Assembly (NCBI RefSeq): GCF_002854065.1
Contig: NZ_CP024147.1
DNA length: 64,000 bases
Source of the DNA: Escherichia coli
GTDB taxonomy: Bacteria > Pseudomonadota > Gammaproteobacteria > Enterobacterales > Enterobacteriaceae
Reading direction: 5' to 3' (one strand)
The position numbers are program-made. Below are positions 48,001 through 51,000 of the stretch, piece after piece. Position 1 is the first letter of the stretch. Every line of letters starts with the position of its first letter.

Positions 48001-51000
48001 TAACCGGGAACCAAATAATCCAGAAAAGCGATGAAGTCAGATTATGCTCATAGCGATTCTCAATCATCAGGCTGACAATAAATTGCAGTAAACATAACGT
48101 ACACAATAATATTCCGGCAGTATGTGTCGCAGCGATATGTGTCAATTCAATATTTAACGGTACACCGGCAAGTTGGACTGCGTAAATAATGAAACCGACC
48201 AGGCAGGTGAAGGCCCATATTGTCGTCAGGCAGTATTCAAAAAACAGTGGCCACATTCGAAAGTTTTCTTTGCGCCATAGCCTTGTCATATTTTTGAGGA
48301 ATACTTCTGCACCGCCCTGAGCCCAGCGCAGGCGCTGTTTCCACAGCCCTTTTAACGTTTCAGGCATTAATATCCAGCACAGCGCCCGAGGCTCGTAAAA
48401 AATCGTCCACTGATTCAACTGCAGCTTCCAGCTAATATCAATATCTTCGGTGATCATATCGTCACTCCAGTAACCCACTTCTGCCAGGGCGCTGCGACGA
48501 AATGCGGCAATAACACCGGAAACGGTAAATACGTTTCCATAGATACGCTGGGTTCGCTTGATCAAACCAATAATTGAGGAATACTCGCCAACCTGAATTT
48601 TACCCACCAGGGTAGAACGTGTGCGAATACGAGGATTACCGGTTACGGCACCCACACGCGGGTTGTACAACATCGGTTCCACAATATATGCCGCCGCATC
48701 GCGGTCTAATAACGCGTCGCCATCAATGCACACCAGATATTCACTTTTCGCCGCGGCAGCTCCGGTTTTAAGCGCAATGGCTTTCCCCTGGTTTTGCGCC
48801 AGATGAATGACCCGCAAATGGGGAATTTGTGCAGCCATGCGATCCAGGATGGCACGGGTTTTATCTGTTGAACCGTCATTTACGGCAATAACTTCAATGT
48901 TCTCATAACGCTGTGCTAAAGCGGCGTGTATGGTTTCCTCAACGTTTTTCTCCTCATTAAAACAGGGAATGATAATGGAGATAGACGGATTATCTTTCAA
49001 CTGGGGAGCTGGTGCGTTTTCTCCCCACGGCCAGTGGCGTTCACGATAGACCCAGAAATAGACGCCGCCAACAATCCACATAATGGACATAAAAAACGGC
49101 CAGAAGAAAACGAACCTCATCATCAGTTCACCAGAGTGAAAGTACGCTACGCATAGGGGGGTAATGACTCCAACTTATTGATAGTGTTTTATGTTCAGAT
49201 AATGCCCGATGACTTTGTCATGCAGCTCCACCGATTTTGAGAACGACAGCGACTTCCGTCCCAGCCGTGCCAGGTGCTGCCTCAGATTCAGGTTATGCCG
49301 CTCAATTCGCTGCGTATATCGCTTGCTGATTACGTGCAGCTTTCCCTTCAGGCGGGATTCATACAGCGGCCAGCCATCCGTCATCCATATCACCACGTCA
49401 AAGGGTGACAGCAGGCTCATAAGACGCCCCAGCGTCGCCATAGTGCGTTCACCGAATACGTGCGCAACAACCGTCTTCCGGAGCCTGTCATACGCGTAAA
49501 ACAGCCAGCGCTGGCGCGATTTAGCCCCGACGTATCCCCACTGTTCGTCCATTTCCGCGCAGACGATGACGTCACTGCCCGGCTGTATGCGCGAGGTTAC
49601 CGACTGCGGCCTGAGTTTTTTAAATGGCGGAAAATCGTGTTGAGGCCAACGCCCATAATGCGGGCGGTTGCCCGGCATCCAACGCCATTCATGGCCATAT
49701 CAATGATTTTCTGGTGCGTACCGGGTTGAGAAGCGGTGTAAGTGAACTGCAGTTGCCATGTTTTACGGCAGTGAGAGCAGAGATAGCGCTGATGTCCGGC
49801 AGTGCTTTTGCCGTTACGCACCACCCCGTCAGTAGCTGAACAGGAGGGACAGCTGATAGAAACAGAAGCCACTGGAGCACCTCAAAAACACCATCATACA
49901 CTAAATCAGTAAGTTGGCAGCATCACCGCATAGGGGTATGCATAACACCAGACATAATATAAAAAACGATACGATGCGATTAATCATTTTTCGGATACCA
50001 GGCTGTTGAAAACTCAGGACGAATAACGTCTATTTCAGGTTGGTTATGCAGAAAATTGTCGGGATAATAACCATAGTTTTTCACTCCATTCAGTTGTAAT
50101 AGGCTCATCCAGTGAGCGAGTTGTTGCGAAGAAATAGCCTGATGCTGACCATTTTTCTGCCAGTTTTGTGCCTGTAATTCTAAAATAGATTTGTCTTTAG
50201 CCTGAGGGATGCTTTTAATCTGATTGGTCAGTTGTATTAACCATTGATCAGCCGATTTTTCTGCGACACCTTCCATATAAGGCATAGCCATAATAGCGGT
50301 CCAGTCATAGCTTTTTAGGAAATCAGCATAATTCTGTGCAAACCAGGCTTCACTTTCAGGTTGTGTTACCGGAAGTGCAAAAATATTTCGTGCAGTTTTA
50401 ACATGTGGACCACGAATGGCTTTTACGCGCGCACTAAGTTCTAAAGTGAAGTCAGTTAACGCACGACTTTTAAAGCGGGTCCACTGTTTAAATTGCTCCG
50501 GGTTTTGTCGAATTTCGCTCAGACTCCCGCTAAAGCCTGCTTGCTGATAAGCCGCGATAGCCGGTGCACTGGCATCTTCATAATCTGAAAGCAAAGCATC
50601 ATCGTGGAACAATAGGCCATCAAAAGCAGCATGTCCGGCAAGATCTTCATATAACATGCCAACTTGTGCTCTGACCCTGTCATCAAAAGGAGAGAGACGG
50701 CGATATTGTTCAGGATGAATTTGTGCTTTTTTCTCTCCTGTTGGTAAGTATTTTACTCGCGTTAATGTGGGATCTAAATCCCAGCTTAATACCGGCATCC
50801 ACGCATAGATGTTTACACCTGAGCGGGTACGTAATTGCCAGGCAACCCGACTAAAAATATCTGCTTTCATTGGTAGCAAACGATTTGGAAACCAGACCTC
50901 TTTGACCAGCCCATCACCATCGGGATCAGCAAATGCCTGCAAATACACGGTTGATATTTGCATATCTTTCACCCGCTGAATTAGCACATCAATATTGCGA

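Follow-up and report, generated by a model that had tools for sequence, protein, structure and literature searches.

A strain-private IS1 insertion at the 5' end of pgaC in an Escherichia coli isolate with an older pgaA frameshift

The stretch of DNA analysed here (64,000 nucleotides of contig NZ_CP024147.1, Escherichia coli, assembly GCF_002854065.1; hereafter the window) contains the pgaABCD operon, responsible for the synthesis and export of poly-N-acetylglucosamine (PGA, also PNAG). The operon is read from the minus strand, and its third gene, pgaC, is split by a complete copy of the insertion sequence IS1 which has the same direction of transcription as the operon. A second IS1 lies on the other side of pgaA, next to dgcT. 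The features of the locus are collected in Table 1.

Table 1. Features of the pga locus and of its two IS1 elements (positions in the window).
Feature	Position	Strand	Remarks
pgaD, 137 aa, intact, downstream of the insertion	47470..47883	minus	NF011180, 298 bits
pgaC 3' part, codons 21-441 and stop	47885..49150	minus	412-aa reading frame from Met30
Target-site duplication, left copy GCATAGGGG	49151..49159		pga-sense reading CCCCTATGC, second copy of pgaC codons 18-20
Complete IS1, 768 bp	49160..49927	minus	right inverted repeat (IRR) 49160-49182, left inverted repeat (IRL) 49905-49927; co-directional with pgaABCD
insB' frame, 167-aa reading frame	49175..49678	minus	NF033558 profile positions 76-199
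insA, 91 aa, GTG start	49597..49872	minus	NCBIfam NF033558 transpos_IS1, profile positions 1-81
TTTAAAAAAC frameshift motif (-1, insA/insB' junction)	49615..49624	minus	seen directly in the sequence
Promoter-like site CTGCCA-16 nt-TATGAT inside IRL, directed into insA	49893..49920	minus	promoter scan; sole promoter-like site within the element
Target-site duplication, right copy	49928..49936		pgaC codons 18-20, continuous with codons 1-17
pgaC 5' fragment, codons 1-20	49928..49987	minus	runs into IRL, giving a 28-aa peptide MINRIVSFFILCLVLCIPLC-GDAANLLI-stop
pgaB, 672 aa, intact	49980..51998	minus	stop overlaps the pgaC start
pgaA with 1-bp deletion between 54405 and 54404 (codon 9)	52007..54429	minus	premature TGA 54384..54382, codon 16
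Second IS1, identical to the first and inverted relative to it	56473..57240	plus	no target duplication; borders on the DNA downstream of dgcT

The element in pgaC ends with GGTAATGACTCCAACTTATTGAT at 49160 (IRR) and with GGTGATGCTGCCAACTTACTGAT at 49927 (IRL, minus-strand reading), its outer sequence extending from GGTAATGACTCC... at the former position to ...GGCAGCATCACC (reverse strand) at the latter. The two terminal repeats match at 18 of 23 positions, and both the length of the element and its imperfect ends of about 23 bp fit the IS1 family. In IS1 the A6C motif is the site of the -1 programmed frameshift which joins insA and insB', and this transposase arrangement, with TTTAAAAAAC at the junction of the two frames, is present here. 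The DNA of the element is 100% identical to a copy in E. coli 100416, which is labelled there by the Prokaryotic Genome Annotation Pipeline (PGAP) as an IS1-like element IS1B family transposase with programmed frameshift. An earlier inspection of the same DNA without database searches (the sequence-only reading) had described a complete 768-bp IS1 in minus orientation, and its boundaries, ends and insA/insB' frames bear this out.

On both sides, the element is flanked by GCATAGGGG, a 9-mer which occurs exactly twice in the 64-kb window; the probability that two flanking 9-mers agree by chance is 1 in 262,144. In the pga sense the duplicated bases read as CCC CTA TGC, encoding Pro-Leu-Cys at codons 18-20, and IS1 is located on the codon boundary after codon 20. 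The sequence-only reading placed the insertion in codon 20; more precisely, the element follows this codon and does not lie inside it. When IS1 and one of the repeats are excised in silico, an intact 441-aa PgaC open reading frame (ORF) is restored, residues 30-441 of which are the window's own 412-aa ORF. IS1 prefers AT-rich DNA as its target, and the 50 bp upstream of the insertion site fit this preference with an A+T content of 70%, against 50% for the window.

Relatives of the isolate were found through an exact look-up of the PgaB protein combined with BLAST. The exact PgaB protein of the window is widespread. Two genomes stand closest to the isolate: E. coli 100416, from stool in Gambia (NZ_CM128593.1), and the draft assembly GCA_050286445.1, which show 99.94-99.98% identity with the window across about 12.5 kb of the locus. 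In both the site is empty: the 9-mer is present once, and pgaC is uninterrupted and encodes 441 aa (PGAP annotation in 100416, WP_000610451.1). The window is collinear with 100416 from position 1 to 49159 at 99.955% identity (next-best complete genomes, 99.3%), and collinearity with this strain continues on both flanks of IS1. Since the relatives carry the empty site, the insertion is recent and strain-private: it is a genuine transposition which took place after the split from 100416 and the draft strain. The comparison with related isolates proposed in the sequence-only reading thus returned near-identical genomes lacking IS1 at this site, and its diagnosis of a simple IS1 transposition from the identical 9-bp flanks is upheld by the single-copy empty site.

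This IS1 junction is absent from all 5,426 complete E. coli genomes searched by megablast with the junction region, and the 26-mer spanning it gave no match in an exact search of the GTDB species representatives and the JGI metagenome contigs. One megablast match that resembled the same site was rejected, the insertion being 19 bp away. The sequence GCTACGCATAGGGGGGTAATGACTCC may be used as a tag for this insertion, and the junction provides a clean marker for telling the isolate from its sister strain 100416. That an assembly error placed an IS1 copy in pgaC is formally possible and counts against our interpretation, IS1 being highly repeated in this lineage (39 matching places in 100416 for an IS1-containing query, compared to a median of 13 per genome). 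However, a misjoin would not create a perfect, codon-exact 9-bp repeat which is single-copy in the relatives, and both flanks remain collinear with 100416; we consider such an artefact extremely improbable.

The second IS1, the dgcT-side copy, is common to the window and its relatives; in the latter it stands in place of the pdeT side. At the IRL end of this copy (56472/56473), 48 bp of native DNA (ATGCTTATCATTGATCAG...GGCAATTG) retained by the relatives are missing in the window only, and the deletion begins exactly at the IS end. This loss looks like the signature of a strain-private, IS1-mediated adjacent deletion. Since both the insertion and the 48-bp deletion are private, two IS1-dependent events probably occurred at the locus in this strain, and each of them may be taken as an indirect sign of IS1 transposition activity.

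The two elements (49160-49927 and 56473-57240) are about 6.5 kb apart with their IRL ends inward, and they bracket 6,545 bp comprising pgaC', pgaB, pgaA and dgcT. Two IS1 copies bracketing a passenger are also typical of composite transposons of the Tn9 or Tn1681 type, but the outer flanks, GCATAGGGG and CGCCGCGAG, differ, which is not the structure of a segment inserted as a unit. For this reason, and because the passenger is native chromosome collinear with the relatives, an IS1-flanked composite transposon was rejected. As a separate observation, such an inverted pair of identical IS1 copies is a substrate for inversion through homologous recombination.

The same pair raises the question of where the pgaC copy came from. 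The two IS1 copies of the window and the dgcT-side copy of 100416 are all identical, which rules out recognition of the donor of the pgaC copy by single-nucleotide polymorphisms. It could be imagined that the element at 56473 transposed intramolecularly and replicatively into pgaC, so that the 6.5 kb with pgaB, pgaA and dgcT underwent duplicative inversion, and that recombination between the two inverted copies later turned the segment back, leaving an arrangement which mimics simple insertion. Identical, inverted copies with inward IRL ends are the geometry predicted by this scheme, the neighbouring copy was evidently active in this strain, as the 48-bp adjacent deletion suggests, and the IS1 transposase is reported to prefer action in cis (PMC12903888). 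Nevertheless, two events are needed where one suffices, the resulting end structure is indistinguishable from that of a simple insertion, and the dgcT-side copy of 100416 is equally identical, so that a comparison limited to three copies of the lineage does not single out the neighbouring element. We regard this route as very unlikely. By contrast, it is very probable that an intact IS1 entered the AT-rich 5' end of pgaC through a simple transposition, which was recent and is private to the strain.

The operon carries a lesion older than this transposition. In pgaA, the first gene of the operon, the change at codon 9 from GGTGCCCG to GGTCCCG (window 54382-54429, minus strand) is common to the window, 100416 and GCA_050286445.1, while slightly more distant strains have the gene intact; PGAP also marks pgaA of 100416 as frameshifted. 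Since this frameshift is present in relatives which lack the pgaC insertion, IS1 represents a second hit. Judging by the sequence, the operon was already damaged before IS1 arrived, and the element is not the sole cause of the presumed PGA loss. The expectation of the sequence-only reading that the insertion should abolish PGA synthesis, unless an outward IS1 promoter drives a truncated product, is thus incomplete: PgaC is indeed severed from its start, but the pgaA frameshift is a prior lesion shared with the relatives.

These comparisons show the order of events. The frameshift in pgaA arose first, in the common ancestor of the strain and its relatives. Later, the transposase would have cut CCCCTATGC (codons 18-20) with a 9-bp stagger, IS1 would have been joined in, and repair would have duplicated the 9 bp. 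Since then, synthesis of full-length PgaC is impossible, the native start giving only the 28-aa peptide which ends within IRL, and the remaining 421 codons together with pgaD are situated behind 768 bp of IS1 with their translational coupling to pgaB lost. In this sequence of steps IS1 appears as the second hit on a compromised operon in an IS1-rich E. coli lineage.

The consequences for the operon follow from the position of the insertion. The pgaC ATG (49987..49985) overlaps the pgaB stop (49982..49980; ATGATTAA) and is cut off from the rest of the gene, in agreement with the coordinates of the sequence-only reading, and with IS1 after codon 20 there is no uninterrupted pgaC whose native start is coupled to pgaB. 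The InsB stop TAA (49177..49175) is in frame with the downstream part of pgaC, and the first canonical start after it is the ATG of Met30 (49123..49121). IS1 is polar in both orientations, as is known from IS1 mutants of gal and lac. Polarity on pgaC'-pgaD is therefore expected, both from this classical genetics and from the lost translational coupling to pgaB. In addition, PNAG is polymerised by PgaC, in whose absence PgaD is unstable (PMC8461298). We infer that loss of PGA/PNAG production is the likeliest outcome, and the isolate is predicted to lack PGA/PNAG-dependent biofilm.

Several observations weigh against a complete loss. The ORF of the PgaC core from Met30 and pgaD are both intact. 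A scan of the pga-sense strand of IS1 found no intrinsic terminator. From the InsA stop to Met30, 473 nt are left untranslated; this segment is G-rich rather than C-rich and lacks the Rho-loading signature (C>G), and its composition neither supports nor excludes polarity. Finally, a 792-aa pgaA ORF opens at the TTG at 54385 (TTGA, overlapping the premature stop) with a shortened, signal-peptide-like N-terminus; reinitiation at this codon might rescue PgaA, and the operon was perhaps not fully dead before the insertion. Our literature search found no work specific to IS1 in pgaC or to Rho-dependent polarity of IS1.

One alternative is that IS1 trims PgaC instead of inactivating it. Transcription from the pgaA promoter or from the IRL promoter would cross the element, translation would start at Met30 or Met31, and the resulting 412-aa, IcaA-like core would retain some activity together with PgaD. 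Reconstructed PgaC scores 648 bits against TIGR03937 (PgaC_IcaA; cut-off 422.3), with model positions 1-407 mapped to residues 30-437, so that the family-defining core starts exactly at Met30. The preceding residues 1-29 make up a single additional hydrophobic helix. When 1.84 billion representative proteins were searched exhaustively, 47 near-full-length homologues were obtained, for which the median alignment start is residue 30; the N-terminus is shorter than that of E. coli PgaC by at least 10 residues in 41 of them, and residues corresponding to the first 10-28 are missing from the majority of distant homologues. Pairing with the anti-Shine-Dalgarno sequence is equally weak at the native ATG and at Met30 (-2.8 kcal/mol). 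Moreover, the element is co-directional with pga and contains, as noted, neither a detectable intrinsic terminator nor a C-rich tract, and host transcription from upstream does enter IS1 (PMC12428005). The choice of the 412-aa ORF by gene callers in many intact operons points in the same direction.

On the other hand, closer homologues, with 52-72% identity, keep the N-terminal extension (M-I/T-D-R-I-x-A-F-x-x-L-C-L-V...P-L-G) but not Met30. Since the extension is conserved from residue 1 and Met30 is not, position 49987 is supported as the true start, and this pattern suggests that the extension is functionally maintained, apparently under selection, in this clade. The coupling to pgaB is gone, IS1 is classically polar in both orientations, and export would still be blocked by the pgaA frameshift. 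At the IRR/pgaC junction, moreover, the scan revealed at its threshold no outward promoter, whether sigma-70-like or hybrid, the only one seen being the IRL promoter of IS1; the outward IS1 promoter which the sequence-only reading invoked to drive pgaC' is thus not supported. Of the truncated product from MMRFVFF which it also envisaged, the part that stands is the core, residues 30-437 spanning the whole of TIGR03937, while the conservation of the extension rather than of Met30 speaks against it.

On balance, we find the trimming of PgaC with some residual activity unlikely, and an active truncated enzyme in this isolate is rather doubtful. The cut falls in such a way that nothing except the clade-specific helix (residues 1-29) is removed, and with read-through the strain would make an IcaA-like minimal PgaC uncoupled from pgaB translation, which is likewise improbable. 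If it were true, the isolate would be a natural experiment indicating that the enterobacterial N-terminal extension of PgaC is dispensable, and the coincidence of Met30 with the start of the family-defining core makes the role of this extension easy to test. No solved structure of PgaC was found in the PDB, where the best matches are other GT2 enzymes aligned from residue 44-50 onward. Even where the pga operon is intact, gene callers in many genomes annotate the 412-aa MMRFVFF form and not the 441-aa form; the 412-aa ORF was therefore dropped as a marker of the insertion.

Outside the pga locus, the end of the window beyond ycdU (61445-64000) contains tRNA-Ser(GGA), followed by ORFs of the size of ghrA and ycdX (61727-62704 and 62759-63496). 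The order ycdU-tRNA-Ser-ghrA-ycdX agrees with the annotation of E. coli strain 600. At the same tRNA, yersiniabactin genes (fyuA, ybtE/T/U) are found in 100416 instead, together with an integrase; an island or a rearrangement distinguishes the two strains here. Next to the tRNA-Ser gene there is also a direct repeat of 80 bp, with copies (61204-61282 and 61384-61463) that are 97.5% identical, and in a related genome the RtT small RNA is annotated at the corresponding region.

Insertions of IS1 into this part of the pga operon are recurrent. In 18 of the 5,426 complete E. coli genomes, IS1 is located in the same orientation no more than about 1.2 kb from the pgaB/pgaC junction, never at the site described here. 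Eleven of these alleles were mapped and represent at least eight other IS1 sites in pgaB/pgaC, six of them with clean 9-bp duplications. In strain 203740 (Mali), IS1 is situated 19 bp upstream, within the first pgaC codons, and a further IS1 is present in pgaA. The alleles of 203740, 24AR0376, AGR5151, EC11, E07, ET479 and others resemble that of the window in the element family and in the operon hit, but they differ in the site, in the target duplication and often in the IS1 variant (91-99.9% identity). An orientation bias, suggested by the fact that all the other pga::IS1 alleles are co-directional, was rejected: it is an artefact of the search, in which pieces were joined into one place only when they lay on the same strand. 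In two unrelated strains, 2017.20.01CC and E07, IS1 occupies the same pgaB position with the downstream 9-mer CTGAGCGGG; their variants are 98.4% and 93.2% identical to the IS1 in pgaC of the window, and one of them has an added deletion. This shared site could reflect a repeated hit or a replacement of the element.

Among the systems studied earlier, the classical polar IS1 mutants of gal and lac have in common with the window a 768-bp IS1, a 9-bp duplication, an AT-rich region and a polycistronic operon with reduced distal expression to be expected. The differences are that in the window IS1 has hit pgaC of a natural isolate and that polarity is a prediction. The closest functional analogue is the interruption of a PNAG/PIA (polysaccharide intercellular adhesin) operon, the staphylococcal icaADBC, by the insertion sequence IS256, where the biofilm polysaccharide is switched off (PMC2816298); TIGR03937 is the equivalog family of both PgaC and IcaA. 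However, IS256 is a member of another IS family, and its insertion there is described as reversible phase variation (PMC2816298), while nothing indicates excision in our case; the pgaA frameshift, as a second and fixed lesion, speaks for decay rather than switching. A more general parallel is offered by the IS-driven pseudogenes of IS-rich E. coli and Shigella, in which insertions and adjacent deletions similarly affect accessory surface and biofilm genes (PMC7373316), although the nearest relative of the window is annotated as a stool E. coli rather than a Shigella and no convergence is shown for this site. Taken together, the insertion adds one allele to the recurrent pattern of IS1 in pgaB/pgaC. 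The kind of event is well known, namely insertional inactivation by IS1 within a partly pseudogenised operon, and it represents routine decay involving no new mechanism.
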